From assembly GCA_001816585.1 (NCBI GenBank), contig MHCJ01000006.1, positions 64,040-128,039 on the forward strand: a stretch of 64,000 nucleotides of DNA, given 5' to 3'. A program made the position numbers and the translations under genes. Origin of the DNA: Candidatus Chisholmbacteria bacterium RIFCSPHIGHO2_01_FULL_52_32 (GTDB taxonomy: Bacteria; Patescibacteriota; Microgenomatia; UBA1400; Chisholmbacteraceae). This document shows positions 2,766 through 57,001 of this stretch, in pieces (the stretch's first letter is position 1; each line of letters opens with the position of its first letter). The notes beneath the pieces are model-generated. The model did no database searches and was not told where the DNA came from. It saw nothing but the letters and a program-made list of their open reading frames with translations.

Positions 2766-3490
2766 ACCTCCTCACCTCCGCTCAAAAGACCGCTTTTTTC
2801 TATCTTGTCTACTATTCTCTCAACAACCTGCTGAATCGTCAAATCGGAAGTGTCCAAAACCCACGCTCCGTGCGCAACCCGAAGTGGATCCGCTTTTCGA
2901 GCGCTGTCCTGCTCATCCCGCCGGCGTAAATCCGCAAGCACCTTCTTGTACGAAAGCCCAATCCCCCGCTCACGGAGTTGTTGTTGGCGCCGACGCGCTC
3001 GCACCTCGGGACTGGCGGTGAGAAAAATGCGAAAAGGGGCATCGGGGAGGACCCGCGTGGTAATATCTCGTCCTTCCATGACCACGCTCTGACCAGCCAC
3101 CATCTCCCGTTGTCTTGCCACCAAAATCGCTCGTACTTCTGGGTGTTGAGAAATAATCGAAGCTCCCAGGCCAACTGCTTCACCGCGGATCTTCCAGGAA
3201 ACGTCCTCGCCGTTGAGCAGAACGGTAGTCAAACGCCCATCCTGCTCCTCCAAAGTCGGTGGCCGAATCTCGATCCTTGCTTGGGAAAGAAGCGTAACAA
3301 CCGAAGAGGAATCCTCCAAGGGAATCCCCGATGACTGCGCCAACAAAGCAGCTGAGCGGTACATCGCACCGGTATCGACATAGACAATTCCTAGTCGTTC
3401 TGCCAAGGATCGGGCCACCGTTCCCTTGCCGGCAGAAACCGGCCCATCAATGGCAATTTGTAAAGGACGAGAAGGACGTTTCATCACCAC
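2762..3490 (-). CDS. cmk: cytidylate kinase
   Basis: IAIDGPVSAGKGTVARSLAERLGIVYVDTGAMYR P-loop/CMP-kinase signature. Confidence 0.85.
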   Translation of the reverse strand: MVMKRPSRPLQIAIDGPVSAGKGTVARSLAERLGIVYVDTGAMYRSAALLAQSSGIPLEDSSSVVTLLSQARIEIRPPTLEEQDGRLTTVLLNGEDVSWKIRGEAVGLGASIISQHPEVRAILVARQREMVAGQSVVMEGRDITTRVLPDAPFRIFLTASPEVRARRRQQQLRERGIGLSYKKVLADLRRRDEQDSARKADPLRVAHGAWVLDTSDLTIQQVVERIVDKIEKSGLLSGGEEV

Positions 3491-3654
3491 TTTCCATCAA
3501 ATCAGAATCGCGCGCTACTCAATGGATAACAAAAATCCAACCTTCAGTAAAGAAGATGGAAAGATCAGAAGTCCGACCAGAAAACCTTCGGCCGAGAAGA
3601 AGCACCTCTCTTCGCCTCCCTACGGTAGAACGGGAAGTAAAACAATATCCTGCC

Positions 3655-6355: not shown

Positions 6356-6811
6356 TTAAGCCTTAAACACCATCCGTTCAAGTGCTTCGATCTTGCGAAG
6401 CCTCCGAAGATACTTCCGATCGCGCTTGGGAGAAGCATCAAGCCATGCGGAGATGATCTTTGTTGCCTGCCCGAAAGAAACCTCATCTGCCGGCAAGGCA
6501 ATGATATTGGCGTGATCATCACTCTTGGCATGGGCTGCCCGCCGCTCGTCAGACACTTCAACCGCCCGAATACCCCTCACTTTATTGGCAACCAACGCCA
6601 TTCCTCCCGAACCACAAAGAAGGATCCCCACATCATCGCTTCCCGCGACTCTTGAGGCAACCGCAAACGCAAAATCGGGGAAATCATCCTCGGGATCATA
6701 GACGGCATTCCCGAGATCAACGACGGCTGGCTGCGTATCCGTCAGCCAGCGCTTGATCTTCTCCTTAAGTTGAAAACCACGATGGTCACTCCCAAGATAA
6801 ATTCTCATCAA
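6356..6811 (-). CDS. rpiB: ribose-5-phosphate isomerase B
   Basis: MRIYLGSDHRGF...LLCGSGGMALVANK RpiB/LacAB family signature. Confidence 0.85.
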   Translation of the reverse strand: MMRIYLGSDHRGFQLKEKIKRWLTDTQPAVVDLGNAVYDPEDDFPDFAFAVASRVAGSDDVGILLCGSGGMALVANKVRGIRAVEVSDERRAAHAKSDDHANIIALPADEVSFGQATKIISAWLDASPKRDRKYLRRLRKIEALERMVFKA

Positions 6812-15368: not shown

Positions 15369-15404
15369 TTACCTCCGTGGTTCACGCTTCATCATTGTTA
15401 ATTC

Positions 15405-15911
15405 TTAATGCTTAATTCTCTCCCGAACCGCGTTCAAAAAGCCATCAACGATCATCTTCGAGGCTACAGTGCGCGAGAAGCCTCGGCTCCGAAGATAAAA
15501 TATCTGCTCCTCATCAATCTTCCCAACCGTTGCGGCGTGAGAAGCATGGACATCATCTGCCTCAATTTCTAACCTCGGTAAAGCCTCTGCTCTGGCCCAC
15601 GGAGAAACAAGGAGAACATTCTCCCGCAGAAAGGCATTCGTCTGCTGCGCTCCTCGTCCTATCTTTATCATACCAGAGAGGAAAACCTGCGAACGATCAG
15701 TTGCCACGGCGCGGATGAAAATATCGCAAGATGTATGTGGTACGCGGTGGAGTGAGGTAATATCAACCACAAGACGCTCCGAGCCCGTAGCCACGAGCGC
15801 CCCCAAAATCTCAACCCTCGCCCCTTCCCCAACCAGCTCGATCGCATACTCCCCCGGCCGGTTAATCACAATCTGTCGCTCTTCGTCCTTCCGAATGGTA
15901 TATTTTGTCAT
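15405..15911 (-). CDS. sufD: Fe-S cluster assembly protein SufD (short form)
   Basis: SufBD-family beta-helix C-terminal motifs (ATVGKIDEEQIFYLRSRG); position between sufB and sufS. Confidence 0.7.
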   Translation of the reverse strand: MTKYTIRKDEERQIVINRPGEYAIELVGEGARVEILGALVATGSERLVVDITSLHRVPHTSCDIFIRAVATDRSQVFLSGMIKIGRGAQQTNAFLRENVLLVSPWARAEALPRLEIEADDVHASHAATVGKIDEEQIFYLRSRGFSRTVASKMIVDGFLNAVRERIKH

Positions 15912-17324: not shown

Positions 17325-17340
17325 CTTTTTAGAAATTAGG

Positions 17341-18129
17341 TTAATGAGAAATTAGAAATTTCCGGTAACCCTCTCTCTCCAATTCCCTCGCCAACTCTCT
17401 TCCGCCGCTTTTCACTATTCTCCCATCAATCATGACATGCACAACATCCGGTTTAATAAATCGGAGCAGGCGTTGATAATGAGTAATAAGAATAATGCCC
17501 AGGGTTTTATTCTTTGCCATCATTCGATTAACCCCATCTGCCACCACCTTCAAAGCATCGACATCCAGTCCGCTGTCCGTCTCATCGAGTACTGCATATT
17601 TCGGGCGAAGCACTGCCATCTGCAATATTTCCAACCGCTTTTTCTCTCCCCCGCTAAACCCCTCATTGAGTGAACGGCGTAAAAGTTCTTCCGGGATGCC
17701 CAATCGCTTTACTTCGTGAAGTAGCTTCTGACGAAATTTCAAAACGCCATTCTTCGGCTGAAGGCCAAGGGTCTGCGTCGCTTGACGGAGAAAATTCTGG
17801 ACGGAAATCCCCTCTATGCTCACGGGATACTGAAATGCCAAAAACAACCCCGCCCTCGCCCGCTCATCAGGAGTCTTATGAAGTAAATCCTTCCCGTCCA
17901 ACATTATCTTACATTGGTATTTATTGGTATTTATTGGTTTATTGGTAGTTATTATTTTTTTCTCTACATCATAGGCTGGATGCCCCATCAGCGTATAGGC
18001 AAGAGTTGATTTTCCGCTCCCGTTCGGGCCCATGATCGCATGGATCTCTCCCGGACGCACCACAAGATCCACTCCTTTCAATATAGGTTTCCCTTCAACC
18101 GACACGTGGAGATTCTTCACAACCAGCAT
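17341..18129 (-). CDS. sufC: Fe-S cluster assembly ATPase SufC
   Basis: Walker A GPNGSGKST, ABC signature LSGGEKKR, Walker B AVLDETDSGLD; GGAGG RBS before ATG. Confidence 0.9.
   Translation of the reverse strand: MLVVKNLHVSVEGKPILKGVDLVVRPGEIHAIMGPNGSGKSTLAYTLMGHPAYDVEKKIITTNKPINTNKYQCKIMLDGKDLLHKTPDERARAGLFLAFQYPVSIEGISVQNFLRQATQTLGLQPKNGVLKFRQKLLHEVKRLGIPEELLRRSLNEGFSGGEKKRLEILQMAVLRPKYAVLDETDSGLDVDALKVVADGVNRMMAKNKTLGIILITHYQRLLRFIKPDVVHVMIDGRIVKSGGRELARELEREGYRKFLISH
17905..17948. repeat. AT-rich tandem repeat (TTATTGGTA-like units x4) inside sufC coding an in-frame ~14-aa insertion
   Basis: tattggtatttattggtatttattggtttattggtag directly visible; encodes TTNKPINTNKYQ absent from canonical SufC. 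Confidence 0.6.
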
Positions 18130-18429
18130 CTCTCCTCCTCATCACTCCTGTCTTATTCTTGTCTCTTGTCTCTTGTTTCTTGTTTCTCTCTACTCACAGC
18201 ACGGATCCTTCCATCCGCAGTTCGTGCAAATCGCTTTCTTCGTCCCCGCAATCGCGCCCATGAGATTCCCACACTGCAGACACTCCTGGGTTGGCTCCCC
18301 TCTTCTGCGAATCTCCCTTGACTGTTGTTTCCAAGTAGATTGTGTTGTTATCCGAAAGGCACCCACATCTCTCCCTACTTGCTATTTGCCATTTGCTAAT
18401 TACCATTTGCTATTTGCTTTTCCCTACTA
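18130..18429 (-). promoter_or_regulatory. 300-nt repeat-rich upstream leader/promoter region of sufCBDSU
   Basis: Tandem TCTTGT(C/T) heptamers and repeated GCAAAT(A/G)GCAAATGG motifs; contains candidate zinc-ribbon sORF. Confidence 0.4.
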
Positions 18430-19507: not shown

Positions 19508-20740
19508 TTATGGAAGCGAGATGCGATTCTCCAACACCACAATCAACCCGTCCGCAACCAACCCGAAAAGAAGCTTCCGTAATCGTTTCTTGTCCGAAAA
19601 TTGATATTGCTTTGCCATCACCGCAGATAATTTCTTTTCTGAAACAGAGCCTTTCCGTACCATATCCACAATCCTCCCCCGAAAATAACGATCCGTCTCC
19701 TCAAATCTCACTCTCTTTTCTCTTAAAGTGTTAACTTTTATGTTGTCGTTTTGCGCTTCATTAGGAGTTTGGTTCCGATACCACATACACAGACCCCTCA
19801 CAGGACACGCTTCGCATTTCGGCCTCCGGCTCACGCACACCATCGCCCCAAAATCCATCATCGCCTGATTCCACACATCTCCCTTCCCTCTCGGAACAAC
19901 AGCATCAGCAAACAAGAGAAGGTCATTCTCAGAAAAATGATCAGTCATATTCCCCTTTGGAGCTAACGCAGTTGAATTCTTCCCCCTTTGAACGCAGCTA
20001 GCCAAGATAAACCGAGCGAATTCCTCTGGAAAGTCATCAACTGTCTGACGAGCCTTTACGGCGAAGGAGTTGGATGACAGAGATGAGCGAGGCAATATCC
20101 TGGCAGACCGTTCATGGGGCACTCTTTCTTCGCCCATTCTTTGAGTGCGCAAAGAATGGGCAGATTCTTTTTGGCTAAGAAGCGTATTTGCTTCTTTTAT
20201 ATTGTTCACTCCCAAAAACACCCTCAATAGCACCCGCTTTGTGTTTATATCCAAAACCCCAACATCCTCCCCATACGCAAATGCCAGTATCGCCCTCGCG
20301 GTATATCGCCCTACCCCAGGAAGCCGCAACAGCTCCTCTTCGCTTCTCGGAAACTCCCCGTCAAACTCGGAAACGATTCTCTTGGCCGCTTTATGTAAAT
20401 AAACTCCCCGTCGGTTATACCCCAGTCCTCCCCATGCTCGGATGAGATCCGAAAGCTTCGCTCTTGCCAATCTCCGAACCGTAGGCCATCGCCGCATCCA
20501 CCGCCGGTAATAAGGAATAACACGCTCCACCTGGGTCTGCTGCAACATCACCTCGGAAACAAGAATCCGATAAGGATCGCGAATCGTCTGGGAGATAAAG
20601 CCTCGTCCCTCCCTCCACGGAAAACCTCTCTTGTGTTTTCGAAACCATAAAAGAATCGTCTGCTGGAAATGGCGCTTTTCTGGAAAAGATAATACAAAAC
20701 GTTCACGAAGATTCAGCACGTAAGGAGTATAGCACTCCAA
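19508..20740 (-). CDS. mutY: A/G-specific adenine DNA glycosylase MutY (HhH-GPD + 4Fe-4S + NUDIX-like C-terminus) carrying an in-frame ~73-aa insertion
   Basis: HhH-GPD motifs LPGVGRYTARAIL, VLDINTKRVL; Fe-S loop CVSRRPKCEACPVRGLC; residues ~191-263 derive from the repeat element. Confidence 0.8.
   Translation of the reverse strand: MECYTPYVLNLRERFVLSFPEKRHFQQTILLWFRKHKRGFPWREGRGFISQTIRDPYRILVSEVMLQQTQVERVIPYYRRWMRRWPTVRRLARAKLSDLIRAWGGLGYNRRGVYLHKAAKRIVSEFDGEFPRSEEELLRLPGVGRYTARAILAFAYGEDVGVLDINTKRVLLRVFLGVNNIKEANTLLSQKESAHSLRTQRMGEERVPHERSARILPRSSLSSNSFAVKARQTVDDFPEEFARFILASCVQRGKNSTALAPKGNMTDHFSENDLLLFADAVVPRGKGDVWNQAMMDFGAMVCVSRRPKCEACPVRGLCMWYRNQTPNEAQNDNIKVNTLREKRVRFEETDRYFRGRIVDMVRKGSVSEKKLSAVMAKQYQFSDKKRLRKLLFGLVADGLIVVLENRISLP
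19952..20183 (+). repeat. Copy A of a ~220-240-nt structured repeat element (double CCCCTTTGAACGCA box, conserved core, terminal perfect hairpin + T-run)
   Basis: Aligns with 28160..28400 in the same orientation; terminal hairpin CCCATTCTTTG-agtgcg-CAAAGAATGGG then CAGATTCTTTTTGG. Confidence 0.7.
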
Positions 20741-26404: not shown

Positions 26405-27100
26405 ATGTCGCTCCCAGTCTTGGAAAAGATCTTCGGAAGAAGTGAAGCCCACCCCGACCAAGAGCTTGCCCGCCGCCTTGAAAAACTCCTCCGCTCAATC
26501 GAAAAACCGCGGATCGCCCACCCCTCGAATTTCTGGATCGGAAGGGAAGTCCAAAAAACAACCGCACCGATCCTTCTGACCATCCCGTTTGAGGAAAAGG
26601 GGGAATTCGCCGTCGTCTGGGCCCAAAACCGGGCCCCCTACGGCCTGATGCTGTTCGCCAAAAGCCAATGGCCTGTCGTTGACTACGACCTCTGGGCCTA
26701 TACCAGAAGTAAGTACAGGGGCCATAACATTTCAAAGCTCACCCTCGCCGAAGGCATCCGCCAGCTTGCCATCGAAGGAAGAGACAGAGTACTGACCGCC
26801 GAGATCCTCATCGAAAATGAACGGACGCGCCAAGGCGCGGTCCGCTGGCTAAAAGTCCTGGGCTTTATCGCCTCGCAAGATAAAGCAGAGGAAAGCTATA
26901 AACGCATCTTCATGGCCGCCTACACGAAAGAAGTACTCAAGACAGCGCTCGCCACTCTCCCGGAACCCTACCAGCGTCCGGAAAAGAAAATGTCTCCCCT
27001 TCCTCCCGACCTCTTGACAGCCTTCGTCGGCCCCCTCACTGAAAGCTTCAACCAAGGCGGGAAAGCCCTGCTCGACCGCCGCCGCTCCGCGCCAGCATGA
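26405..27100 (+). CDS. hypothetical protein (231 aa)
   Basis: ORF only; 4-nt overlap with downstream acyltransferase gene. Confidence 0.5.
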   Translation: MSLPVLEKIFGRSEAHPDQELARRLEKLLRSIEKPRIAHPSNFWIGREVQKTTAPILLTIPFEEKGEFAVVWAQNRAPYGLMLFAKSQWPVVDYDLWAYTRSKYRGHNISKLTLAEGIRQLAIEGRDRVLTAEILIENERTRQGAVRWLKVLGFIASQDKAEESYKRIFMAAYTKEVLKTALATLPEPYQRPEKKMSPLPPDLLTAFVGPLTESFNQGGKALLDRRRSAPA

Positions 27101-28146
27101 ACCCAAAAAGGATTTCCCGCGACCAGCGAATCGACATCCTCCGCATCCTCGCTGCATCTTGGGTCGTCCTTTTTCACTGGTGGGCAGCAATCTGGGGCTA
27201 TCCATCCGTCTTTCCCCAGTCACTCTCCCAATTCCTAAAGAACATTTCACAATTTCCCTTCGGCCCGTTCTATACCCTTTCCGTCCTCGGCGACAACGCC
27301 GTACCGCTGTTTATCGCAATTGCAGCCTACTGTCTCGCAAAAAAACAAAGGGTGGGCTGGGGCTGGATCCCGGATCGCCTCAGGAAAATCCTCTTCCCCT
27401 ACTGGGTTGCCATCCTTATCTCCTTTCCGCTCCTTGCCCTCGCCTGGAAACTCAATCCGAGCCTAATGAAACTTGCCGAGGTCAGACCCCTTACACTTGA
27501 GGGAATTATTGCCGCAGCCCTCCTTCTCCAAAATAGCTTCAAAGCCACCTTCCTTGCTCCGATCCAAGCTTGGTGGTTTGTCCCTATCCTCGTTCATCTC
27601 TACCTCATCTATCCCTTACTTTCCCGGCTCCGAAGCAATCGCTCCGCCTTCCGGTTTCTAACCATTACCATCCTCCTCCAGCTTGCCTGGAATGGACTCA
27701 TCATCTCCCGCGTCCTCGCGACAAATGAGATCCCTCTCCTCCTCCGCTTCTCCGGCCCCTCCTACCTCGCACTCTTTGCTGTTGGAATGATCCTTGCCGA
27801 AGCCAAACGGCGCCCATCATGGCTGACCGGCGCCATCTTCTGGTTCGGCGGCATACTGCTTCGCTTCGCCACCAACAGGCTCTTTCTCTTCTCGGAAACC
27901 CTCATCGGAACCGGCCTGCTCTTGATCGGCCTTCCGCTTGCTGAGGCGCTCATCCGCCGTACCCCAATCCTTGCCGAAAAACTCTCAATCCTCGGGAAAA
28001 AACGAAGCTACCTCGTCTATCTCCTCCACCAACCGATCATCTATGTTCTCTTAATCTTTAGCCTCCCTTTCTTCAGTAAACCCCTGATCACGCTCCTCCC
28101 CTTCCTCGCGGCTGGACTCTGGGTAGCTATCAACGTCAAACGCTGA
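27097..28146 (+). CDS. acyltransferase family 3 (OafA/YrhL-like) integral membrane protein
   Basis: N-terminal RIDILRILAASWVVLFHWW motif (Acyl_transf_3), ~10 TM helices. Confidence 0.75.
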   Translation: MNPKRISRDQRIDILRILAASWVVLFHWWAAIWGYPSVFPQSLSQFLKNISQFPFGPFYTLSVLGDNAVPLFIAIAAYCLAKKQRVGWGWIPDRLRKILFPYWVAILISFPLLALAWKLNPSLMKLAEVRPLTLEGIIAAALLLQNSFKATFLAPIQAWWFVPILVHLYLIYPLLSRLRSNRSAFRFLTITILLQLAWNGLIISRVLATNEIPLLLRFSGPSYLALFAVGMILAEAKRRPSWLTGAIFWFGGILLRFATNRLFLFSETLIGTGLLLIGLPLAEALIRRTPILAEKLSILGKKRSYLVYLLHQPIIYVLLIFSLPFFSKPLITLLPFLAAGLWVAINVKR

Positions 28147-28159
28147 CATTCTCCCAATA

Positions 28160-28400
28160 CCCCTTTGAACGCAACCAACCAGACTAGCTTATTAGCTTGT
28201 AGCTTTCTCAGTTTCTAATTCCCCTTTGAACGCAGCTAGTCAAGATGAGCCGAGCGAATACTGCTAAGAAACGGCCACTGTTCGACGATCGCAGGACGCG
28301 AAGGAGTTTGGCAGTATGATATGAGCGAGGTGAAACCCTGACAGACCGTTCACTGGGGCACCCTTCTTTGGTTACTTTCTTGGGTGCGCAAGAAAGTAAC
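28160..28400 (+). repeat. Copy B of the ~220-240-nt structured repeat element
   Basis: Two CCCCTTTGAACGCA boxes, conserved core GACAGACCGTTCACTGGGGCACCC, terminal hairpin GTTACTTTCTTG-ggtgcg-CAAGAAAGTAAC (compensatory vs copy A). Confidence 0.7.
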
Positions 28401-28785
28401 GTTTATGCTCCTTCATCATGCACCGATCCATGACAACGGTGATCCCTGCCTTCCTCGCTCGCTTCGCCGCCTCTTCATGAATCACCCCTTCTTGCATCCA
28501 TATGACCGGCGCCTTGATCCGAATCGCCTGCTCCACAATCTCCGGCACAAACTCAGACCTGCGGAACACGTCAACCACATCCGGTTTCTCGGGAAGAGAT
28601 AATAAATCAGGGAAACTCTTCTCACCGAGCGTCTCAGAAATCATTGGGTTAACCGGATAAATCGTGTAGCCTACTCGCTGAAGGTAAGCCGCAACGATGA
28701 AACTGTAGCGCTCCGGCTTATCCGAAAGCCCCACAACCGCAATGATCCTGGCTGTTCTAAGAATCTTCGCTATAGACATCGGCAT
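28372..28785 (-). CDS. CoA-binding domain protein (YccU-like)
   Basis: IIAVVGLSDKPERYSF...YPVNP...DVVDVFRR CoA_binding_2 pattern; start set at internal Met (MPMSIAK). Confidence 0.7.
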   Translation of the reverse strand: MPMSIAKILRTARIIAVVGLSDKPERYSFIVAAYLQRVGYTIYPVNPMISETLGEKSFPDLLSLPEKPDVVDVFRRSEFVPEIVEQAIRIKAPVIWMQEGVIHEEAAKRARKAGITVVMDRCMMKEHKRYFLAHPRK

Positions 28786-38841: not shown

Positions 38842-39117
38842 TTTTACTCACCTCCCCTTTAACTAAAAACCTCTCTGTAAAGAGAGGTGAATAGAACCTT
38901 TTCCGACAGAGATCGGACTAATCCTTCCCTTTACAGGGTTGGGTTTAGCACCGTAGCTCTTATGAGATCGGTTGCCGGATGGATCATCGAGCCAACTCTC
39001 TCCCCATCGCTCTTGATTGGCTATTGAATCTTGTACCTAAAAAAATGATACAAGTCAATATGGTTTTTTGAATATAATTCTTGCTCCCCGGGCAGGATCT
39101 CCCTGATCCAAAAAACA

Positions 39118-45085: not shown

Positions 45086-45754
45086 TTAATCTCCAAACGC
45101 TTTAGAGCCCCAGTTGCAAAACTCACAAGCAAAATCGCTATGGCGCTTGGGTTCTGGGCCTTTTAGACACTCTACGGCATCCTTGAATAACTTTTCTGCT
45201 CTAGTTATATCTGTTTCCAGCTTTTTAGGCTCGACTTCAAAGTCCACTCGGCCGTTTTCTGCTACTTGTCTGGGGAAATAATAGACCAGATAAGCAAAAC
45301 TGGCTGTTTTATAACCGTTTTTCATCAACAAATAGCAATAGATATCCAACTGGTGCTGGTAATAACTGCTGGTATCTTCTTTTAACTCATAACCCCGGGT
45401 TTTGTAATCCAAGGGGATATAAACGCCATCATCAACCAAGCAGTCATCCAAAACACCTTTAAGAACAGCGTCAAGCTCTTTGTCCTCATATGTCAGCCCT
45501 TCCCAGTTACTCTGCCATGATTTTAAGAGTTTCTCATCGTCAAACAGCTTACCAATTACTTTTCCTTCAATTTCTGGCGGTAACTTACCCTGTCTGCGGT
45601 ACTTGTCATAGTATTTTTTGATAACCCCATCCATGCCTCCCGGTAGAGATGGAAAAATTCCTCTTGGCCTGTGAATATTTTTGTTAAACTGCAACCAAAA
45701 GCACCTCGGGCACTCCATGTATAGGCTAATTGTTGAGGGTGAGAGTTTTATCAT
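45086..45754 (-). CDS. Cas4/RecB-like PD-(D/E)xK nuclease with cysteine cluster
   Basis: N-terminal YMECPRCFW, core IPLDYKTRG (D...DxK), QxxxY (QHQLDIY), C-terminal CEFCNW. Confidence 0.7.
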   Translation of the reverse strand: MIKLSPSTISLYMECPRCFWLQFNKNIHRPRGIFPSLPGGMDGVIKKYYDKYRRQGKLPPEIEGKVIGKLFDDEKLLKSWQSNWEGLTYEDKELDAVLKGVLDDCLVDDGVYIPLDYKTRGYELKEDTSSYYQHQLDIYCYLLMKNGYKTASFAYLVYYFPRQVAENGRVDFEVEPKKLETDITRAEKLFKDAVECLKGPEPKRHSDFACEFCNWGSKAFGD

Positions 45755-48237
45755 AAACTAACCCGCTTTCTGATAATTTCTTTAACCACTTCCAAATCCT
45801 CATTATTGATAAGATGAAATCTTACCTGATCGTGACGTTTCTTTGGCATGACTGACTCAGGCTTAGACAATTTATCTTTCAGCAACTCTAGTTCTTCAGG
45901 GTTAGTATATTGAAGCTCGGCAAAAATCCACTGCTCAGCAGAATAATAGTAAAGTACCAGATTTTTGGATATCTTTATCGCTCTTGAGGATCCAGCCCAC
46001 CTCTCAAACGACACATCCCGATCCTTAAAATCTTTTTCCACCCATTCTGGGATTGAAGTAACTGCTTGTTTGACAAACTCGCTTTTGACCCGCTTAATCG
46101 TCTGCTCGTCTGGTTCAATCTTTCTTCCCAAGGCTACTTTGCTTTCTTCCGGCTCTTCTTTATCGATATTTTTAACTACTCTGAGTATTTGCGAAAACCA
46201 CTCAACCGCTGCTTCAGCCTCCTTCTGTAATACAAAATTGATTTCCTTGACATGCTTAACTGCATTTCTGAAGTCCTTTAAAGTGATAAACCTTTTCTCT
46301 GTTTCATAGGTTGATCCGAAGTATTGCTCGAAAAACTGCCAATTCTTTAAGATTGTATTTGAATAATCCATCACATCACACTGGCAGAGTTTCTCATAAG
46401 AGGATAATTGATCCTCTTTGATATATGGATTTTTCCTTACATACTCGGCAATCTTGGTTTTAGCTTTAACTTTAATATCTTGTGGAATAACCTTATCCCA
46501 GTAATCGGGGCCGACTTTATCCCTTAAAACGTTATCGATGAGCAAGCGAAGCCGAAGTTCAATATCATCAAGGGCGCTATTGGCATTAACCCCTAAAATC
46601 TGGATGATTTTTGATCCCGTCAATCTCTCAAATTCACCTTTAATTTTTATTACCCTTTCTTTGATAAATGCCTGGTAGTCATCATTTTTGATAACTTCAG
46701 AATAAGTTATCAAGTGTGATTGTAAAGTATTATCAAAGTCAGAGTTTTCCTTATCAAACTTTGAAAAATAGTCGCTTGGGCTTTTATCTAGAATTTCTTT
46801 GTTAAGCTCTGCCGGGATAAAACAGAAGTTAGCGATAAGATTCTCTCCACTCTGACCGTGTTTTGAAAGATGGTTTTTAGGGAAGATGTGGTGTTTTTCC
46901 GGATGGTTAAACTCTGAACAGAAGTTATAATCCATAGAAATCGGTTCGTTTGTTCTGAAATGTTTCGGTGTTCGAAGCGCTAACATGCAGAAAAAAGCAT
47001 TACGCAGGGCTGATTTGGTACTGATGGTAGTATTAGCGATTTTCTCTTCATCGGCCGTAATCTGGAAATTTATCTTTGGCTCTTTATCTGAAAGCAATTT
47101 GTCAAAAATTTCTCTTCTGTCCTCACCCATTTTACTTTCCATAGCCGCTGTGTACCGTTCGCTTAGGGAGGCCTTCCAAAACCACTCGTGGACCTTCTCG
47201 GTAACCTCTTTGTCCAGTGAGTGTCGGGGTGATTTGTAATATAGATAGGCAAGTAAGGAAATAAATGAGGGGTATGGCACAAAGTCAAAGATTTTTACTC
47301 CTAAACTGCCTGTTAAGTGGTCAATTGCCTGCTCAATTGCTGAAGCGATCCCATCCCAATTGTTTTTAATCTCCTCCTTTCTTAGCTGCAGTTGGTAAAT
47401 CTTGTTGCAATAGCCTTTAAGGATTAAAGAGGCAGTATGAGTGACTACTTCCGGCGGGATCTCACCAAAGTTTTTCTTGCTGATTCTTCCGCTTAATTCC
47501 TCATATTTCTCTTTCAAGTCAAAATCTTCTCCCCAAGTGCTAGCCACGATCAGGTCAAATAGCGACAGCTTCTTACCTCCCTGATTGATCCTTTCAAATA
47601 TCTCACAAGCCTCGTTTAAAGTGGCGTTAGATACGGTAACCACGCTTAGGGGGTAGGTAGTAAACCGTCGATAACAATCGTTGAAGACTTTTCGTCTTTC
47701 CGGTGGCAACTTGTCATAAAGAGATAAGTGATCTTCTCCGATTATTTTATACAAAGGCAAGTATCGGTCGCTTTCTTTTTTGACCTCAAAAACAGAGATA
47801 TTTCCGTTTTCATCAGGAGTTTTTTTGTAGTAATCCAGATCTAGACAGATAACCGAACAGTCAATTGCTTTAACCTTGTTGTTGTGTTTAATCTCAACCT
47901 TCAATCCCTTCCAGGCAGCATATAACGAACAAATCCTTTGCTGGCCGTCAAGGATAAACTTCAACTTCTCATCCGACCTTGGCTTTTTAGGCATAATGCC
48001 AAGCTCCGGCAAGTCCCGATAGAAAAGATTGTGCTTACCAGTTGTTTCCCAGAGGAAAAAACTTCCAATAGGATACTCTTTAAAGATACTGTCAAGCAAA
48101 GCCACAATCTTACTTCGTTCCCAGACAAAATCTCTTTGAAATCTGGGCACCCGTAAAGAGCCTTCGGTTAAAGCGTCAAGCAAAGTGATGATCTGTTTGC
48201 TTCCTTCTGATTCTATTCTTGGTGCTGATATTGACAT
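45751..48237 (-). CDS. GmrSD-family type IV restriction-like nuclease (DUF262 ParB-like + DUF1524 His-Me finger) with C-terminal HEPN-like extension
   Basis: DUF262 motifs VPRFQRDFVW, ILDGQQRICSLY; DUF1524-like NHPEKHHIFPKNHL...ENLIANFCFIPAELN; C-terminal FRNAVKH (Rx4H). Confidence 0.8.
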   Translation of the reverse strand: MSISAPRIESEGSKQIITLLDALTEGSLRVPRFQRDFVWERSKIVALLDSIFKEYPIGSFFLWETTGKHNLFYRDLPELGIMPKKPRSDEKLKFILDGQQRICSLYAAWKGLKVEIKHNNKVKAIDCSVICLDLDYYKKTPDENGNISVFEVKKESDRYLPLYKIIGEDHLSLYDKLPPERRKVFNDCYRRFTTYPLSVVTVSNATLNEACEIFERINQGGKKLSLFDLIVASTWGEDFDLKEKYEELSGRISKKNFGEIPPEVVTHTASLILKGYCNKIYQLQLRKEEIKNNWDGIASAIEQAIDHLTGSLGVKIFDFVPYPSFISLLAYLYYKSPRHSLDKEVTEKVHEWFWKASLSERYTAAMESKMGEDRREIFDKLLSDKEPKINFQITADEEKIANTTISTKSALRNAFFCMLALRTPKHFRTNEPISMDYNFCSEFNHPEKHHIFPKNHLSKHGQSGENLIANFCFIPAELNKEILDKSPSDYFSKFDKENSDFDNTLQSHLITYSEVIKNDDYQAFIKERVIKIKGEFERLTGSKIIQILGVNANSALDDIELRLRLLIDNVLRDKVGPDYWDKVIPQDIKVKAKTKIAEYVRKNPYIKEDQLSSYEKLCQCDVMDYSNTILKNWQFFEQYFGSTYETEKRFITLKDFRNAVKHVKEINFVLQKEAEAAVEWFSQILRVVKNIDKEEPEESKVALGRKIEPDEQTIKRVKSEFVKQAVTSIPEWVEKDFKDRDVSFERWAGSSRAIKISKNLVLYYYSAEQWIFAELQYTNPEELELLKDKLSKPESVMPKKRHDQVRFHLINNEDLEVVKEIIRKRVSL

Positions 48238-48254
48238 ATTTTTATACTCAATAT

Positions 48255-51200
48255 TTAATTTTCTCCACTCCAGTCTTTACAAAGTAAATTTGCCTGTTCC
48301 AATACGGTTTGTGTTGCGCTTTCCTGTTTGTCCGGTGGGTAGTTGTACTTTCGTAAAAGCTTCTTAACATACACTCTTAATTTTGCTTGAACGTTTTCTT
48401 TGATTGTCCAGTCAATGGTGGTGTTTTTACGAAGCATGGACACAAGCTCTCTGGCAATCTGCATGAGTATTTTATCTCCCAACTCCCGGATGGCGCTTTC
48501 ATTGACGCATAGCGCATCATAAAAGGCCACTTCCTCGGGGCTAAGCCCAATCTCTCCACCTCGTTCTTTTTCTTTCTTAATTTTCTTGGCCAGTTCAACC
48601 AGTTCAGCGATCACTTGGGCGGCTTCGATAGTGCGATTCTGGTATTTCTTAATTGTCTCCTCAAGCATCTGAGCAAAAGAGCGTGATTTTACCAGATTAG
48701 ACCTCATCATAGTGACAATTTCATCATTTAGCAGGCGCTTAAGCATCTCAAAGGCCAAATTCTTATGAGGCAAATCTTTAACTTCAGCCAAGAATTCATC
48801 AGAAAGAATGGAAATATCCGGTGTTTTAATTCCTGTTGCCGAGTAGATATCAATAACCTTATCCGAAACAATCGCTCCCGAAACTATCTGTTTGATTGCC
48901 TCCTGATAATCTTCGTCAGTTGGTCCTCCGCCACCGCCCCCGCCGCCAGATTTTCTAATACCAGCTTTTACCGATTGGAAAAAGGCAACTTCGTCTCTGA
49001 TTTTCAGAGCCTCCTCATCGGGTACGGATAGGGAAAAGGCAAATGAAAGCTCAGTTACAGCCTGGATGTACCGCTTCTGCCCGTCTTCCAAGCCGAGAAT
49101 ATAATCCATAGCCGAAGCAATAAGTCTAGTACGCTCAGAAGCCGAGCCTTTTAATTTATCTTTATACTCAAACCCGTGGTACATCTGACAAACAACCTCG
49201 TACTTTTCAAGCATGATCCTGACTGCTTCTTCTTGGGGTATGGCTACTTTCTTGCGGTCATTGTCAGTGTAGTAAGCCAAAGCGTCCTTCAGCTCCGGTG
49301 CAATACCCAGATAGTCAACGATCAGTCCTCCTTGTTTGTCTTTAAAGACTCTGTTGACTCGAGCCACAGTCTGCATCAGTCCATGACCTTTCATTGGTTT
49401 GTCAATATACATGGTGTGCAGACACGGCACATCAAAGCCTGTCAACCACATATCCCGAACAATGACTAATTTTAATTTATCGTTGGGGTCTTTCATTCGA
49501 TTGGCTATATCGTGCCTTACCTGTTTGGTGCGGATATGTTTTTGCCAGTCCAAAGGATCAGCGGCTGACCCGGTCATCACTACTTTCAAAAATCCATCCC
49601 GATCATCATCAGAAGCCCAGTTTGGTCGAAGCTTAACCAGTTCGTTGTATAGCTCAACCGCAATCCTCCGGCTCATTGCCACCACCATACCTTTGCCGTC
49701 AACTGCTGAAAGTCTAGTTTCAAAATGTTCAACTAAATCCTTGGCGATAAGAGAAATACGCTTTGGAGCTCCAACCAAAGCTTCAAGCCGGGCCCATTTG
49801 CTCTTAAGCTTTTCTTTCTTTTCCACTTCTTCTCCTTCTGTTAATTCTTCAAACTCCGGGTCAATTTTAGGCCGTTCTTCTTCCTTTAAAGAAATCTTAG
49901 CCAGCCTTGCCTCATAGTAAATCGGTACTGTTGCTTTATCCTCAACTGCCTGGGAAACATCATAAACGTCAACATATTCTCCAAAAACTGCTCTGGTGTT
50001 TTTGTCTGTCAGCTCAATTGGAGTGCCGGTAAAGCCGATAAACGAAGCGTTGGGAAGTGCATCTCTCATGTGGCGGGCAAAACCATCGATAAAGTCATAC
50101 TGGCTACGGTGAGCCTCATCGGCAATAACCACAATATTTGTCCGCTCCGAGAGCATCTGGTAGTCATGTTTGCCGTTTTCGGGGAAAAACTTTTGGATAG
50201 TGGTAAAAACCACGCCACCAGAAGCAACTTTTAAGTATTCTTTTAATTGTTCCCGGCTTTCTGCCTGTTTGGGAGTTTGCCGAAGTAAACTTGAACAGCG
50301 GGAAAAGGTTCCAAACAACTGATCGTCCAAGTCATTTCTGTCTGTCAAAACCACAATCGTCGGGTTATCAAGTGCCTGGATGATTTTTCCGGCATAAAAG
50401 ACCATAGTTAAACTCTTGCCTGATCCTTGCGTATGCCAAACCACGCCACAGCGCCGGTCTCCTTCTTTTCCGGTTGCTTCCATTGTCTTAGAAACAGCCT
50501 TATTGGTAGCATGATACTGATGGTAAGCAGCTACTTTTTTGCTGATTTTCTCACCATCAGTCTCAAAGACCACAAAGTTATTGATAATATCCAAAAGTCT
50601 TTGTTTTTCAAAAATCCCTTTTAACAATACTTCCAGCTGAGGCACCGAGTTTGGCGCTAAATCCTGACCCTCAATAGTCCGCCACCTGGTAAACCACTCC
50701 ATGTTTGAAGAAATCGTTCCGGCTCTGGCTTCCAAACCATCGCTGATGATTGCCAGTTCGTTATAGGCAAAAAGAGAAGGAATTTCGCTTTTGTAGGTTT
50801 GAATCTGGTTAAAAGCGCCTTTAACAGTAGCTCCGGTATCTGCCGGGTTTTTCAGCTCGATAACCGCAACAGGAAGACCATTGATAAAGATAACGACATC
50901 CGGTCGTCTTTGGGCTCTGTTTTCGATAACCGTGTATTGGTTGACTGCCAGAAAATCGTTTTTATCAGGCTTGCTCAAATCCAAAAGTTTTACTTTATCT
51001 CCGGCAATTGAGCCATCTGTCCGTTGATATTCAACATCCACACCGTCACGAAGCATGGCATGAAAGGCTTTGTTGTTTACTGCCAGTTGAGGGCTTAAAG
51101 TAGATACTCGAAGCACTTTGCGTAAAGCATCTTCTCGGGCTCCCTCCGGTATATCCGGATTCAAACGGTTAATCGCATTTTGTAATCGTTCTACTAAAAC

Positions 51201-51341
51201 TACATCAGAGTAGCTTTTACGTTCCGGCCTTTCACCATCTGGCGGTGGAGCAATCTCTGGTCCTCCAACCACGCTATACCCAAGCTCTGAAAGCCACTCC
51301 AGCGTTGCCTGTTCTAAATCTGATTCTGTATATTTAGACAT
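48255..51341 (-). CDS. hsdR: type I restriction enzyme R subunit HsdR
   Basis: HsdR N-terminal domain, SF2 helicase motifs [26 protein letters not shown]; 1028 aa. Confidence 0.9.
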
Positions 51342-51343
51342 AT

Positions 51344-53776
51344 TTAGTAAACTTTTTCAGTTATTTTTATAAATTCGGCAATGTGATTATCTAGTTCAGA
51401 GATTGCCGATGGAATTTCTTTGTCTGCATGTAACAAATTTGAGTAACTGCAATACTTATAAATATTTCTTATTCTTTCCAAATCGGTATCGTTCAGCTTG
51501 ATAAGTTTTCCTTTACCAGATATTAAATTGTCGGTAACCTGAGTAAAGTTATCCTCTTTGTTCCATAATAGTAGTTCGTTTTTGATAAATCTTTCTATGG
51601 CTAACCGCAAAAGCTGACCATATTTCAAAGCTATTGCCTCTAGGCATAATGTGCCCTTTTTTGCCTGCTCTGTCATCTCCTGATAACACTGTTTTACATC
51701 CGCAAGTAAGTCAAATCCAGGATCAGAGTAGATAAAGCTTCCACCGAATTCTTCTCTATTTCTAGCTATACCAAACGTGATCGGGTTGGGATTCTCACAC
51801 TTTGATAAATACTTATAAAAAAGCGGGTGATGGGTTAATACGACAATCTGCCCAAAGGTTTTAGTTTTTTCATGGATGAGATCCGATAGTATCTTCAGAT
51901 TGGGAGCGTCAAGACTAGTTATTGGATCGTCTAGAATCAAGATAACGTCTTTTTTGTCACCAATATTCTCGTTCAACGCAAAGAAAAACGCCAAGGAAAC
52001 CATCTGTCTTTCGCCTTCTGATAAACCTTGCTTAAAAGCTCTTTCCTTTCCGCTTTTATCGTATATTCTGAAAGAAAAGGGGTACTCCTTCGTCTTCGGT
52101 GAAAGCTTAATATGCTTAAGTGTAAAATTGAGGTTGAAACGACCAATGATTTTTATCATTAAGTCAATGAGAGATTGAGGTATTTTCTCTGATAAATACT
52201 TTTCTAAATTGTCTTCTAACAAATCTACTTCCTGATCTAATTTTTCTTTTTCAGACTTTACCTTCTCGTGCTTTTTAATTTGCTCAACTCTTTCTCCTTC
52301 AACAAATGCGTAGATTCCTTCAAGTTCAGCAATCTTGTTGTTTACTTTTTGATGCTCTAGGTCAGTGTTCCTTTTTACCGAATATTTCTGTTTAAACTGG
52401 TTGATTTTTTGGTTCTTACTATCAATAAATTTGTTAAATTCAGTTATCAACTTGTCGAGTTTAACAAAAAAAGCATTTAATTCATCATAAGCGGAATCGG
52501 TACAATATTTTGGTTTTTCTAAAGTTTTCAGTTGCTGTAAAGCCCGCTGAAGTATTGATATTGCCTGAGAGGCTTTACTGCATATTTCAAATTTCTTATT
52601 GTAAGAAATCTTCTCGTCAATATTGTAAAGATCTTTAATTTCAAATTCCTGATTTACTTTCTCAAAAGAAGAAAAAGCCTCGAGTACATCTTCTGGTAAA
52701 TTAGTTATGAAGGTAAGATATTCCGTAATTTCTTGTTCAAGATTTTGAATATCGCTTAGGTATTTTTGCTTCTCGTTTTCATATGTTTTGTCAAATACCT
52801 GTCGATAATATTTGATGACAGCTGTTGCACCAGATAACGGTTGCATACACAGTGGACAGTTTTTGTTCTTTGTATCTGTAATCCTTTTATAATTTTCATC
52901 TTTTTCTAGGAATGACTTATGTTGCTCATAATGTGCTTTTATTAAAGAATCCGCACCATCTCCAGCAGTTTTTTTAATATCCCTTTCGAAAAGTTCAATA
53001 TAGACCTTCTTTGAAGAAATCTGGGGTCGGTCTGACAATTGATTTATCGTTTGAATCCCTGCTATTTGTGCTGACTTGTTTAGTAGTTTTGTGAGACGAT
53101 CCTTGTCTTTTTTTTGATCTGAAATTTCACTTAAAGTCCTTTTGGCAAGTGCTCCTTTTTGATTTTTATTTAAACTTTTATATTTGTTAAACAAGACTAT
53201 CTCTTCCGGGGAGACTGTTAGGTGCAATATGTCCTTGTTGTTGCTTTCAAACTGACTTAAGGCCATCTTTTTTTCCGAAAGATCCATCTTTTGTTTATTT
53301 GCCTGAGCGTCTAAGCTGATAATGAGATTGCCAGCGTTTTGGGTGTGATATCCCTGGATATTGCTAATCGTCCCGTGGGAGTGGATATTTTTATCTATAA
53401 AGTCAACATCAAAAAATAGGATATGTTTTTGTTCTTTTGGTGTATCATCCCATTTTCCTTGCTCGAAGCGGTATGTCTTCGTTGATATATTCCTTTTTAT
53501 ATAAGTTTTTCCATTTGGAGCTGTGTTTTTACTTAACTCAACGGTCTCAAGCTCAACTTCTGACAATACGGGTTTATCGCCTTCAAATCTTTGAAAACCA
53601 GTTAAGTCTTTCAGTATTTCACAGACTGAAGATTTCCCAGACCTGTTTTCTCCAAAGAAAACTGTAAAAGGAGAAAATGAACACTCTCTTCCAGTTTTAT
53701 CCTTACATAAACAATCCCACTGAAAATCTTGAAACGGTTTGTAATTTTTTATAGTTTTTATCTTCTTAATTTTCAT
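51344..53776 (-). CDS. RloC-like Rad50/SMC-type ABC ATPase with coiled-coil CPxC zinc hook and C-terminal putative anticodon-nuclease-like region
   Basis: Walker [10 protein letters not shown], signature LSEGERQ, Walker [15 protein letters not shown]-loop VVLTHH; ~450-aa coiled-coil insert with CPLC; embedded in hsd operon. Confidence 0.6.
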
Positions 53777-55052
53777 AATCCCTTACTCTTAATTTTCCAC
53801 TCATTAACCTTGGTAAAAGTGAATCTCTTATAGATGTTAGACGCTCAATCTCATCATGTGTTTGTCGATATTTAGAAAACAATAAATCTATAAGGCCACT
53901 AAATTCGGCAAGTATTTCTTTTTTCGGAAGAACTACAGGAATTGAATTTAAATTGTTTTGATTAAGTTTTGGTTGAACAGCTCCTGTGATATAAGGTGCA
54001 ATATTTGTAACTTCAAGAAAAAGCTTTAAAACTTCAGTTGAAAATCCATTTTTACCCTTTAGTACATGGGCATGATTGTTGACCCAAAATTTTCCCCATA
54101 CATACTGTGTGACTGCAGTTTCTTTGTTGGTGATTACCGTTCCGTCTTCTCCAACCAATAAATATATTCCGTCAAAAATGAAGTCATTAACATGATCCAT
54201 TACGCCAGTTGCGCCGTAGTACCTAAAGTCTCCTTTGCGTTTCTCTCTTTCTCTATTCGATAGAGGTATTCTTTTTGAGTCAAAATTTTCTACAACATTT
54301 CCAAAGTGTCCAGCTTCCCACCCCTCCGGTATCTCTCCTAATTCCGAATTCACCATTTTGCCACCGCTTGATTTGTAAGGCCTACCATTTTCATCGGGGA
54401 ATTCAAAATCTACAAACCATTGCTTAAAGAGTGCCTTGCCGATTTCCTCAAGCGTATTGTTCATTTTCCGGTTGAGCTCGATCTTGTCATCAAGAGAAGA
54501 GAGGATCAAAATGATTATCTGTTGCTCGTGAATACTAGGTAATGCAAGCTTTATCAATTCAATAATTTGCCGGTTAGCGATATTGACTTGAACACTTCCT
54601 GTTGAGCGAGATGTTATTGAAGTAAATCCATATCTTGAGGTAAAAAAATACTTTAAATAGTCTGGTAATATCTTTTCAGTGTCAGGCCTTAAAGCTAAGA
54701 GCGCCTGGCTGATGATTCCTTTTGGGTCTTCGTCCGTAATGATTGATACCTTACCAAGCGTACCCGAACAACTAATGATCAGGTCATTTACTTTTACTTG
54801 AAATCTTTTTAGTTCTTCAAATTTTTCTTCATCTATATAGTATCTAAAGTCTCGAACACCATATATTGCGTGTTGTTGCTCATAGACAGGTATTCCTTCC
54901 GATTTTAGCTCAGGTCTTCTTAGCGCTGAACCGAAAGGCCCTCTGATATATCCTTTTTCTGACAATACATCCCTTAATTCAACTAGCTCCCAAGTTTGTG
55001 GAATTTCGCCGATTTCGGTTTGTTTGTAATTTGTTTTAGATGTCATATCCAA
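53766..55052 (-). CDS. hsdS: type I restriction-modification specificity subunit HsdS (two TRDs)
   Basis: Conserved HsdS N-terminal and central repeat regions; overlaps hsdM by 17 nt. Confidence 0.85.
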
Positions 55053-56562
55053 CTTTTTTTAAATTCTCCTTTATTTTCTGTTCCAACTCTTTGGATTGTT
55101 TGAATTGCACTGAAAGTTCTTTTGTTAATCTTGCCATTTTTTCTTCGAATACTTCGTCATCTTCCATTTCAAAATCTGTACCCACATAGCGGCCTGGAGT
55201 TAAAACAAATCCATTCTTTTCTACTTCTTCAATCGTGGCAACCTTGCAAAAGCCCTTTTTATCCTCATACTTGCTGTTCTTGTTTCTCCAGTTGTGGTAG
55301 GTTTGGGAAATCGTGGCTATATCTTCATCGGTCAATTCCCGGTGTCTGCGGTCGATCATCTTACCCATCTTGCGTGCGTCGATAAATAGGATTTCATTGT
55401 GCCTGTCCCGAAACTTGTTGTTGTATCTGTCTCTTGAGACAAACCAAAGACATGCTGGAATTTGCGTGGTATAAAAAAGCTTATCCGGCATGGCGATAAT
55501 ACAATCCACCAAGCCGTTCTTAACCAGATTTTTTCTAATTTCTCCCTCTCCTGAAGTGTTTGACGAGAGCGACCCGTTAGCCATGACAAATCCGGCAATC
55601 CCTATTGGTGACAAATGATGAATAAAGTGCTGGATCCAAGCATAGTTGGCGTTTCCTGTCGGAGGTGTACCGTATTTCCAACGCATATCCTCACGTAATC
55701 TTTCACCGCCCCAGTCGCTGATGTTAAACGGAGGATTGGCTAGGATAAAATCGCTTTTTAAGTCTTTGTGCTGATCGTTGTGGAAGCTATCACCAAGCAA
55801 GATATGCTTACTCTCAATTCCTCTTATGGCAAGGTTCATCTTACAAAGCCTCCAAGTGGTAGCGTTTGACTCCTGACCAAAGATAGCGACATCGTCAAGC
55901 CTGCCGCCGTGAGTCTCGATAAACTTCTCGCTCTGAACAAACATGCCTCCTGATCCGCAACACGGGTCAAAAACACGGCCTTTGTAAGGCTCGATCATGT
56001 AGACCAAAAGTCTTACTACCGAAGCCGGGGTAAAAAACTCTCCGCCGCCCTTGCCTTCAGCGCTGGCAAATCGGCCGATAAAGTACTCATAGACTCGTCC
56101 AAGTACATCTTTTGACCGGCTTTCTTTATCTCCCAGTCCAATTGTACCGATAAGATCGATCAATTCTCCTAAGCGCTGTTTGTCTAAAGTTGGCCGGGCA
56201 TAATCTTTGGGAAGCACGCCTTTAAGCGAGAGGTTTTCTTTTTCAATTGCCACCATGGCATCGTCAACCAGTTTGCCTATTTCTGCTTTCTTGGCATTTT
56301 GTAAAAGGGAATTCCAGCGGGCTTCTTGGGGTACCCAGAAGACGTTTTCTGCTAGGTATTCGTCTTTGTCTTCGGGATCTGATAATTTGTCAGCTTTTAA
56401 TTTTTCGTGGAGTTCTTCGAAGGAGTCGGAGATATATTTAAGAAAGATAAGGCCAAGTACAACATGTTTGTACTCCGAGGGGTCCATGTTGTTTCGCATT
56501 TTGTCGGACGCCGCCCAGAGTTTTTCCTCAAACCCCAGATTGGCCGAGGTTGTTTTTTTCAT
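55036..56562 (-). CDS. hsdM: type I restriction-modification N6-adenine DNA methyltransferase HsdM
   Basis: HsdM N-terminal domain, FxGxG SAM motif, catalytic NPPF ([12 protein letters not shown]). Confidence 0.9.
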
Positions 56563-56592
56563 AATTTTAAATTCTCCTATTTTTAAAATTCT

Positions 56593-56796
56593 CTACTTTT
56601 TCTTTTTTTGAGATTTGCTTTTTATATATGCTTCAATATCTTCTTTTTTATACCTGCGGTCACCAATACCACGCCTGGTGCCGATCCTAACAGCTTTTAA
56701 TATGTTGTCATTGTCCCATCTGCGGAGCGTCTGTTCGTTCACCTTCAAAATTTGGGCTGCTTGCTTGAGAGTTAGTAATTCGTCTATGCCTGTCAT
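56593..56796 (-). CDS. excisionase/MerR-like HTH DNA-binding protein
   Basis: LTLKQAAQILKVNEQTLRRW HTH; first gene of the minus-strand island operon. Confidence 0.6.
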   Translation of the reverse strand: MTGIDELLTLKQAAQILKVNEQTLRRWDNDNILKAVRIGTRRGIGDRRYKKEDIEAYIKSKSQKKKK

Positions 56797-56868
56797 ACAT
56801 TAATTGTCTTTAATTATACATTTATTATTGTAAAAAGGGAAACGAACAAGTAGAATATAAACAGATCA

Positions 56869-56953
56869 GAGCTGCGAAATATGCCTTCGGCGTGGTCTTG
56901 AACCCAAAAAGGGGCGACTCTCGTAGGGTTCAAGGCTTCGCAGCTCTGAATAC
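56869..56953. repeat. 85-nt imperfect palindrome with perfect 12-bp terminal inverted repeats
   Basis: CAGAGCTGCGAA ... TTCGCAGCTCTG with internal GCCTTGAACCC/GGGTTCAAGGC complementarity; in divergent intergenic region. Confidence 0.55.
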
Positions 56954-57001
56954 TGGGGGTCGTCCCTTTCTGTTTGGAGGATGACCCAGAAAAGATAATA
57001 T

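Follow-up and report, generated by a model that had tools for sequence, protein, structure and literature searches.

A folded repeat carried in frame within mutY defines an apparently low-copy structured element family in Candidatus Chisholmbacteria

A folded repeat of ~190 bases, found a few times per genome in a group of uncultured groundwater bacteria, is located within the DNA-repair gene mutY without breaking it. The repeat belongs to a previously undescribed, apparently low-copy family that is conserved far better than neutral DNA and is therefore probably a functional small RNA or a mobile element. The data lean towards a functional + strand RNA, although they do not settle the question. 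The analyzed sequence (the window) is a 64,000-nt stretch of a Candidatus Chisholmbacteria genome (Candidate Phyla Radiation, aquifer metagenomes), and lies within a 178-kb contig from a JGI aquifer metagenome. The organism is abundant in the Rifle aquifer, and the same locus is found in at least 22 contigs.

Two copies in the window and a wider family

Both copies were found where the initial annotation had placed them, and the observation of a structured repeat present twice in the window is confirmed. Copy A (about 19952-20183) and copy B (about 28160-28400) are both on the + strand and align at 76% column identity. The features are as follows.

19508..20740 (-), mutY (HhH-GPD adenine glycosylase) ORF of 410 aa, carrying the insert
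19940..20185 (no strand), extent of the extra DNA in mutY relative to orthologues without an insert, about 81 codons, with boundaries uncertain by about 2 codons
19952..19970 (+), copy A box 1, a degenerate duplicate of the rod's 5' strand (CCCCTTTGGAGCTAACGCA)
19983..20119 (+), copy A rod (helices P1-P4, four tandem G.A motifs, central internal loop); the exact box is at 19983-19996
20120..20131 (+), copy A pyrimidine linker CACTCTTTCTTC (class 1)
20132..20161 (+), copy A terminal 12-bp hairpin with loop AGTGCG, followed by a T-run
20177..20196 (+), possible second, weaker hairpin unit at the 3' edge of the insert (AAGAAGC/GCTTCTT)
27097..28146 (+), Acyltransferase_3 gene ending 13 nt before copy B box 1, in the same orientation as the element
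28160..28173 (+), copy B box 1, an exact duplicate of the first 14 nt of the rod
28174..28220 (+), copy B spacer, containing TAGCTTATTAGCTTGTAGCT (28185-28204)
28221..28358 (+), copy B rod
28359..28370 (+), copy B pyrimidine linker CACCCTTCTTTG (class 2)
28371..28400 (+), copy B terminal 12-bp hairpin with loop GGTGCG
28372..28785 (-), convergent CoA_binding_2 ORF whose last ~10 codons (KRYFLAHPRK*) are read from the antisense of the copy B hairpin

The exact 14-mer CCCCTTTGAACGCA occurs three times in the window, at 19983, 28160 and 28221, against 0.6 expected, and the hairpin pattern occurs only at the two copies in the 64 kb. Four points of the initial annotation require correction. First, both copies were said to share two boxes, but the first box of copy A is not an exact copy. 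Second, the box and the "conserved core" were listed as separate motifs, whereas in both copies the second box pairs with the core exactly 114 nt downstream, so that box and core are the two strands of one closing helix. Third, the insert was estimated at ~73 codons but is about 81, since there are 128 residues between NTKRVL and WNQA against 46-47 in the closest orthologues without an insert. Fourth, copy B was described as intergenic between convergent genes, but it is not purely so, because the convergent CoA-binding ORF runs through its hairpin. A T-run after the hairpin is seen only in copy A and is not a family feature.

Searches for further copies were performed at several levels. A pattern scan of one genome per species returned two more true copies, both in the GTDB MAG Candidatus Chisholmbacteria bacterium RIFCSPLOWO2_01_FULL_49_14 (L007 and L009; L numbers denote loci or contigs retrieved here), along with one chance hit in coding sequence of a Terriglobia contig (L008). 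A metagenome scan brought the total to 17 distinct type-1 copies, all from groundwater or sediment contigs; L025, a long perfect palindrome at a contig end, is a chance hit. The pattern scan of viral contigs gave 0 hits, and blastn of copy B against 72,556 plasmids and 50,697 phage records gave no match. A covariance model of the family (R1) finds only the two copies in the window (197.6 bits for the copy A rod, 189.1 bits for the copy B rod), and none in a further ~20 kb of the same genome, in 21 kb from two species whose mutY is empty, or beyond the known copies in the other loci examined. The family is absent from Rfam 15: at gathering score the only hit in the window was a SAM riboswitch elsewhere, and at E<=10 the hits over the two copies were at chance level (12-19 bits against thresholds of 38-90), with no relevant match to 6S, group I or II introns, HEARO/omega RNA or SRP.

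Features accompanying the element recur among these copies. Box-1 remnants similar to that of copy A occur upstream of L010, L014, L017a, L018 and copy B, and TAGCTTATTAGCTTGTAGCT is also found upstream of the copies in L018 and L021. A clearer 10-bp equivalent of the possible second hairpin of copy A is present in L014 and L010. Hairpin units occur in tandem arrays of 2-3 in L017a, L018, L021, L026 and L028.

Structure, strand and conservation

Each element has a 137-nt rod closed by CCCCUUUGAACG/CGUUCA(N)GGGG, a pyrimidine linker, and one to three hairpins with a pyrimidine-rich 5' arm and a purine-rich 3' arm. On the model-fitted alignment, 96.2% of pair cells form standard pairs, as compared to 34-45% when the 3' partners are slid by 1-3 columns. 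Thirty of 48 pairs show changes on both sides, and 0 of 500 column shuffles reach the observed covariation score. RNAalifold run on a plain MAFFT alignment independently recovers the basal helices and the hairpin, with 15 compensatory pairs. Between the covarying helices lie internal loops that do not vary: the two GAGCGA motifs face each other, AU-GA-GCC faces GGC-GA-(A)AU, and GA flanks the apical 3-bp stem on both sides. Read antiparallel, these give four tandem G.A/A.G pairs separated by G-C pairs, present in 8-12 of 15 copies. An A.C mismatch is conserved in 14 of 15 copies.

Selection appears to act on the + strand, which is antisense to mutY. Minimum free energies do not distinguish the strands (-60.1 against -60.8 kcal/mol). 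However, within the helices G.U cells outnumber A.C cells 22 to 10 on the + strand, and the tandem G.A motifs would be U.C/C.U mismatches on the other strand. This evidence is moderate rather than decisive, and because both features would also stabilize single-stranded DNA, it fits single-stranded DNA as well as RNA.

Conservation of the element was compared with that of flanking genes. L016 and L017b, orthologous copies upstream of an ogt-like gene, are 89% identical over 187 nt, whereas the adjacent gene is 71% identical overall and 55% at third codon positions. The rods of the mutY copies of three species are 79-84% identical, as compared to 74-82% for mutY at all positions and 52-64% at third positions. 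Linker plus hairpin are 45/45 identical between the window and L010, the mutY copy of another species. Paralogues within one genome or contig are only 70-72% identical, so within-genome homogenization by gene conversion does not explain the conservation, and each paralogue seems to be old and individually maintained. Some conservation could nevertheless come from recent exchange, as suggested by the mosaic copy L024 described below.

In all 18 copies, the linker is the mirror image of the loop-proximal part of the hairpin's pyrimidine arm, and is therefore parallel-complementary, in the Hoogsteen sense (U.A-U and one C+.G-C), to the purine arm. The single C moves in concert between two classes, CTTTCTT with TTCTTTG/CAAAGAA and CTTCTTT(T) with TTT(T)CTTG/CAAGAAA(A). 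A triple helix is one reading of this pattern, but it is a lead and not a finding: the linker abuts the base of a fully covarying 12-bp stem, in some copies it can instead pair with a second purine tract downstream, and linker and hairpin are adjacent and could be swapped as a single block, so the number of independent events is small. Each genome or contig with two copies has one copy of each class.

The insertion in mutY and the spread of the family

The window ORF is a MutY-type glycosylase in which the four Fe-S cysteines and the catalytic-motif residues are invariant across a 66-sequence alignment. The closest orthologues without an insert (L034 and L035) have 46-47 residues where the window protein has 128; orthologues P0006, P0008 and more distant ones lack the insert. 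Among relatives, the same site holds several different things. A type-1 element is present in frame in two other species (L010 and L012), preceded in L012 by the 5' part of another element. L013 carries a different rod, "type 2", with the same kind of linker and hairpin; this distant relative scores 40 bits against R1 and folds with z = -4.7. L014 carries a ~100-nt remnant. All of these keep the mutY frame open. AlphaFold predicts a confident MutY core (pLDDT above 90) and pLDDT below 50 for residues 210-263, which fits a tolerated surface excursion.

The antisense frame is stop-free in the three mutY copies, whereas 10 of the 12 intergenic copies have 1-2 stops in it and most carry frame shifts, so the element is not a coding module. 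A phmmer search of 1.84 billion protein representatives with the insert peptide found only the MutY cluster plus one spurious repeat protein (P0121), and a word-index search for other in-frame hosts found nothing. In-frame insertion is therefore a single event for this family and not a habit of it.

The family has nonetheless reached unrelated loci. No transposase, TnpB, reverse transcriptase or integrase lies near the copies, and no transposase, TnpB or reverse transcriptase was found within about 85 kb of this genome. The site upstream of the class-I aldolase gene is empty in L010 and filled in L014 and L009. L024 lies at the locus orthologous to copy B, next to the CoA-binding gene, whose end is likewise read from the hairpin. 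Its rod, however, is 96-97% identical to that of L009, which lies at a different locus in another species, and only 79-80% identical to copy B, while its hairpin stem matches copy B; this mosaic indicates recent exchange. Duplicated 5' boxes and nested fragments look like debris of repeated insertion or recombination. No target-site duplication was recognized at the mutY or aldolase junctions, although the insertions are old and a short duplication could have eroded.

Interpretation and comparison with known systems

The initial annotation's interpretation is supported. The checks it had proposed came out positive, in that further copies exist, covariation is strong, and MutY orthologues outside a narrow clade lack the segment, which is thus an insertion and not a native domain. 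Its comparison with Rickettsia palindromic elements holds for behavior (an in-frame, tolerated, translated insert) but not for membership, and its suggestion of an own terminator holds only for copy A. It had left a MITE-like element and a small structured RNA gene both open.

Apparently low copy number, old paralogues, conservation above the neutral rate, invariant internal loops and strand asymmetry point to a functional structured RNA that has been copied to new loci, and this reading is held with moderate confidence. The family is or was mobile, or has been duplicated. In this view, the + strand is transcribed into a stable small RNA whose conserved tandem G.A internal loops form a binding platform, a protein-binding role being inferred from what such motifs do in other RNAs. 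Copy A would have landed antisense inside mutY in an ancestor of several species, with only versions that keep the frame open surviving, so that MutY carries an ~81-residue, probably disordered surface loop while the opposite strand keeps the RNA fold. The analysis demonstrates the family, its structure, the insertion and conservation above the neutral rate; transcription, a trans-acting function and the mechanism of spread are inferences only. Against this reading, no motif is shared by the 120 nt upstream of the copies, so no portable promoter is evident, and most copies lack a U-tract after the hairpin. Promoter and terminator consensus scans were uninformative.

A purely selfish MITE, mobilized by a transposase encoded elsewhere and perhaps acting on single-stranded DNA, with the long stem as its terminal and subterminal inverted repeat and no host function, is less likely but remains possible. 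The element is 190-250 nt with no frame conserved among intergenic copies, and copies lie at unrelated loci with presence/absence polymorphism. Rods at non-orthologous loci can be 96-97% identical, different family members, nested fragments and a remnant occupy the same mutY site, and duplicated 5' boxes resemble debris of earlier insertions. The rod ends form an imperfect inverted repeat (CCCCTTTGAACG and CGTTCA(N)GGGG), but the linker and hairpin(s) lie outside it, and insert boundaries at the empty/filled sites extend 20-50 nt further. The lack of a recognizable target-site duplication or nearby transposase argues against this reading, as does the low copy number seen in the sequence covered (2 copies in about 85 kb of this genome and 2 pattern hits in the GTDB genome). 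Decaying MITE copies would also not be expected to show orthologous copies much more conserved than neutral sites alongside old paralogues.

A cis-acting intergenic element in the manner of REP/BIME, ERIC or SPRITE, serving as a bidirectional terminator, an mRNA 3'-end stabilizer or an insulator, with the mutY copy an accident, is unlikely. In about 8 of 14 contexts the hairpin end faces the 3' end of a convergent gene, several copies follow a co-oriented gene, hairpins occur in tandem arrays, and copy A scores as terminator-like. However, most copies have no U-tract, a 137-nt rod with invariant internal loops is far more than a terminator needs, some copies lie in divergent promoter regions (L009/L014, L016/L017b, L026), and the hairpin never occurs without the rod in the window, so it is not an independent, genome-wide REP-like repeat.

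Removal of the insert as an intron or intein is essentially excluded. Different inserts at exactly the same site in orthologous genes resemble homing, but there is no Rfam match to group I or II introns, the strand under structural selection is antisense to mutY, the frame is kept open in five diverged orthologues, which an intron would not require, and an 81-residue insert with no Hint or other Pfam hit on record is too small for an intein. A native MutY domain, with the other copies as gene fragments, is refuted: although the peptide is partly conserved among three orthologues, the closest and more distant orthologues lack it, its conservation tracks the nucleotides that pair in the rod, the peptide search found it only in MutY, intergenic copies carry stops and frameshifts, and the other 14 copies have no mutY flanks. 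On reading the sequence, a CRISPR mini-array (boxes of only 14-18 nt, no cas genes), a template/variable repeat pair of a diversity-generating retroelement (differences not adenine-specific, no reverse transcriptase), a retron msr/msd (no reverse transcriptase), an integron attC site (R boxes do not fit, no integrase), a box C/D-like RNA (UGAUGA in only one subfamily) and an SRP or 5S RNA were also dropped.

A further reading, speculative and rather doubtful, is a functional small RNA family specific to the Candidate Phyla Radiation, consisting of a rod with a ladder of four tandem G.A pairs capped at the 3' end by a hairpin that may form a pyrimidine-motif triple helix with the linker. One paralogue would be encoded antisense to, and in frame with, mutY, making a true dual-coding locus maintained across genera, in which one strand specifies a structured RNA and the other a tolerated loop of a DNA-repair enzyme.

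Candidate Phyla Radiation bacteria have tiny genomes, and almost nothing is known about their non-coding RNAs or small mobile elements. A literature search found no paper reporting MITEs in this radiation, the single paper holding both terms being concerned with diversity-generating retroelements. The family supplies a covariance model with strong covariation, a clear case of an in-frame, long-retained insertion in a core repair enzyme outside Rickettsia, and evidence that the inserted DNA is itself under selection on the opposite strand. If the RNA is functional, the locus is a natural example of overlapping RNA and protein coding. It would also test how much insertion the MutY fold tolerates between the catalytic motif and the Fe-S cluster loop.

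Among known systems, triple-helix 3'-end elements (ENE/MALAT1 type) share the parallel complementarity of the linker to the purine arm of the adjacent hairpin, but the topology here is awkward, as the linker abuts the base of a 12-bp stem whose lower half covaries, and with only two or three ancestral 3' modules the statistical support is weak. 6S RNA is likewise a rod of similar overall size with a closing stem, a central asymmetric internal loop (13 nt/7 nt here) and an apical stem, and some bacteria have two or more paralogues. However, the Rfam 6S model gives no hit even at E<=10, the rod is shorter than known 6S RNAs, the element is present or absent at orthologous loci, one copy lies inside an ORF, and a tandem G.A platform has not been described as a 6S feature. 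REP/BIME elements also have short hairpin units, sometimes in tandem and often between convergent genes, but in the window the hairpins are always attached to the 137-nt rod, and no GTAG-type conserved tetranucleotide or RAYT gene was seen.

Bacterial MITEs (Correia/CREE, ERIC, BOX, RUP, Nezha) are short and lack an ORF, have inverted-repeat ends that give a stem, occur in multiple copies with presence/absence polymorphism, have a modular build (like the boxA-B-C modules of BOX) and are sometimes transcribed, and the general appearance of the element is MITE-like. In this family, no target-site duplication or parent insertion sequence was found in the loci examined, only a few copies per genome were seen in the sequence covered, covariation runs along the whole interior, internal loops are invariant, and orthologous copies evolve more slowly than synonymous sites. 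Rickettsia palindromic elements are ~100-150-bp palindromic repeats that can fold into a long hairpin, insert in frame into a housekeeping ORF, are kept and translated, and are predicted to sit on the protein surface (PMC10969869), and the behavior at mutY is similar. They occur in dozens of copies inserted in frame in many genes, each family carrying a conserved peptide ORF, whereas here copy number appears low, only mutY carries the element in frame, intergenic copies have stops, the strand under selection is antisense to the ORF, there is no sequence similarity, and the host belongs to a different phylum (Candidate Phyla Radiation).

Linker, terminal hairpin and upstream sequences of the element

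The pyrimidine linker and terminal hairpin, at 20120-20161 in copy A and 28359-28400 in copy B, were compared across the window and all copies in the contigs L007-L031. In each instance, the linker is the mirror image of the hairpin's 5' arm and is therefore parallel-complementary to the purine arm. Two classes exist in which the single C shifts in concert, and genomes or contigs with two copies have one of each class. This arrangement could reflect a triple helix, an alternative pairing with a downstream purine tract, or pairing in trans between paralogues. In two copies, those in L009 (6583-6664) and L024 (982-1065), the hexaloop of the terminal hairpin is replaced by a ~39-nt GC-rich mini-hairpin (CCGTGCCCGCAAT...GCAGGCGGGGG). 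These replacements show that the loop tolerates insertions.

Sequence is also shared by the regions upstream of some copies. A 20-nt sequence, TAGCTTATTAGCTTGTAGCT, is found upstream of copy B and of the copies in the contigs L018 and L021, and L018 and L026 (another contig with a copy) also share a ~110-nt upstream module (ATGAATCATGAATTAYGAATGAGG...). The full element may therefore be larger and more modular than rod plus hairpin. The positions of the 20-nt sequence are:

window 28185-28204, upstream of copy B
L018 ~1520-1540
L021 ~6375-6396

Tandem arrays of 7-nt units (3.7-6.3 copies, with a different unit at each site) are frequent in the intergenic DNA of this genome and also lie just upstream of several element copies. 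In L018, the units include GGTTTAG, which resembles a telomere repeat. The arrays were located at:

window 15394-15419
window 17329-17360
window 18157-18187
window 18375-18418
L018 1376-1516
L007 (a Chisholmbacteria contig carrying a copy) 3473-3500

Element copies at the ends of neighboring genes

The CoA-binding protein convergent with copy B ends with about 10 residues (KRYFLAHPRK) that are read from the antisense of the copy B hairpin (window 28372-28400, - strand), and the orthologue in L024 reads even further into its element. This is a second, C-terminal case of the element contributing codons to a protein. In the case of the contig L023, one copy (859-1046) ends 7 nt before the start codon of rplJ (ribosomal protein L10) and is in the same orientation, although this placement is possibly coincidental. 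The 14-mer box was also found in L025, an unrelated GC-rich contig that starts with a ~215-nt perfect palindrome (1-215) which happens to contain it; this is probably an assembly artefact or a chance hit.

Other features of the window

A search against Rfam returned a single hit at gathering score in the window, a SAM riboswitch. Separately, the region at ~45750-61280 is a defence island holding a type I restriction-modification system together with several further genes. These features are:

38916-39022 (-), SAM riboswitch (RF00162), 57 bits
48255-51341, HsdR of the type I restriction-modification system, which also includes HsdM and HsdS
45751-48237, GmrSD
57002-57850, Mrr
58.1-61.3 kb, a three-gene set with a TOP6A-type Toprim protein, a HATPase_c protein and an HTH protein
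also within the island, an AAA_13 ATPase and a PD-(D/E)XK protein

The SufB gene of the window (~15.4-16.9 kb) lies next to the ABC ATPase gene at 17341-18129 and was compared to its counterpart in L014, a contig from a related species. SufB of the related species (L014 9648-12305) is 885 aa and carries an intein with a LAGLIDADG endonuclease, whereas the window's SufB is 476 aa and has none.
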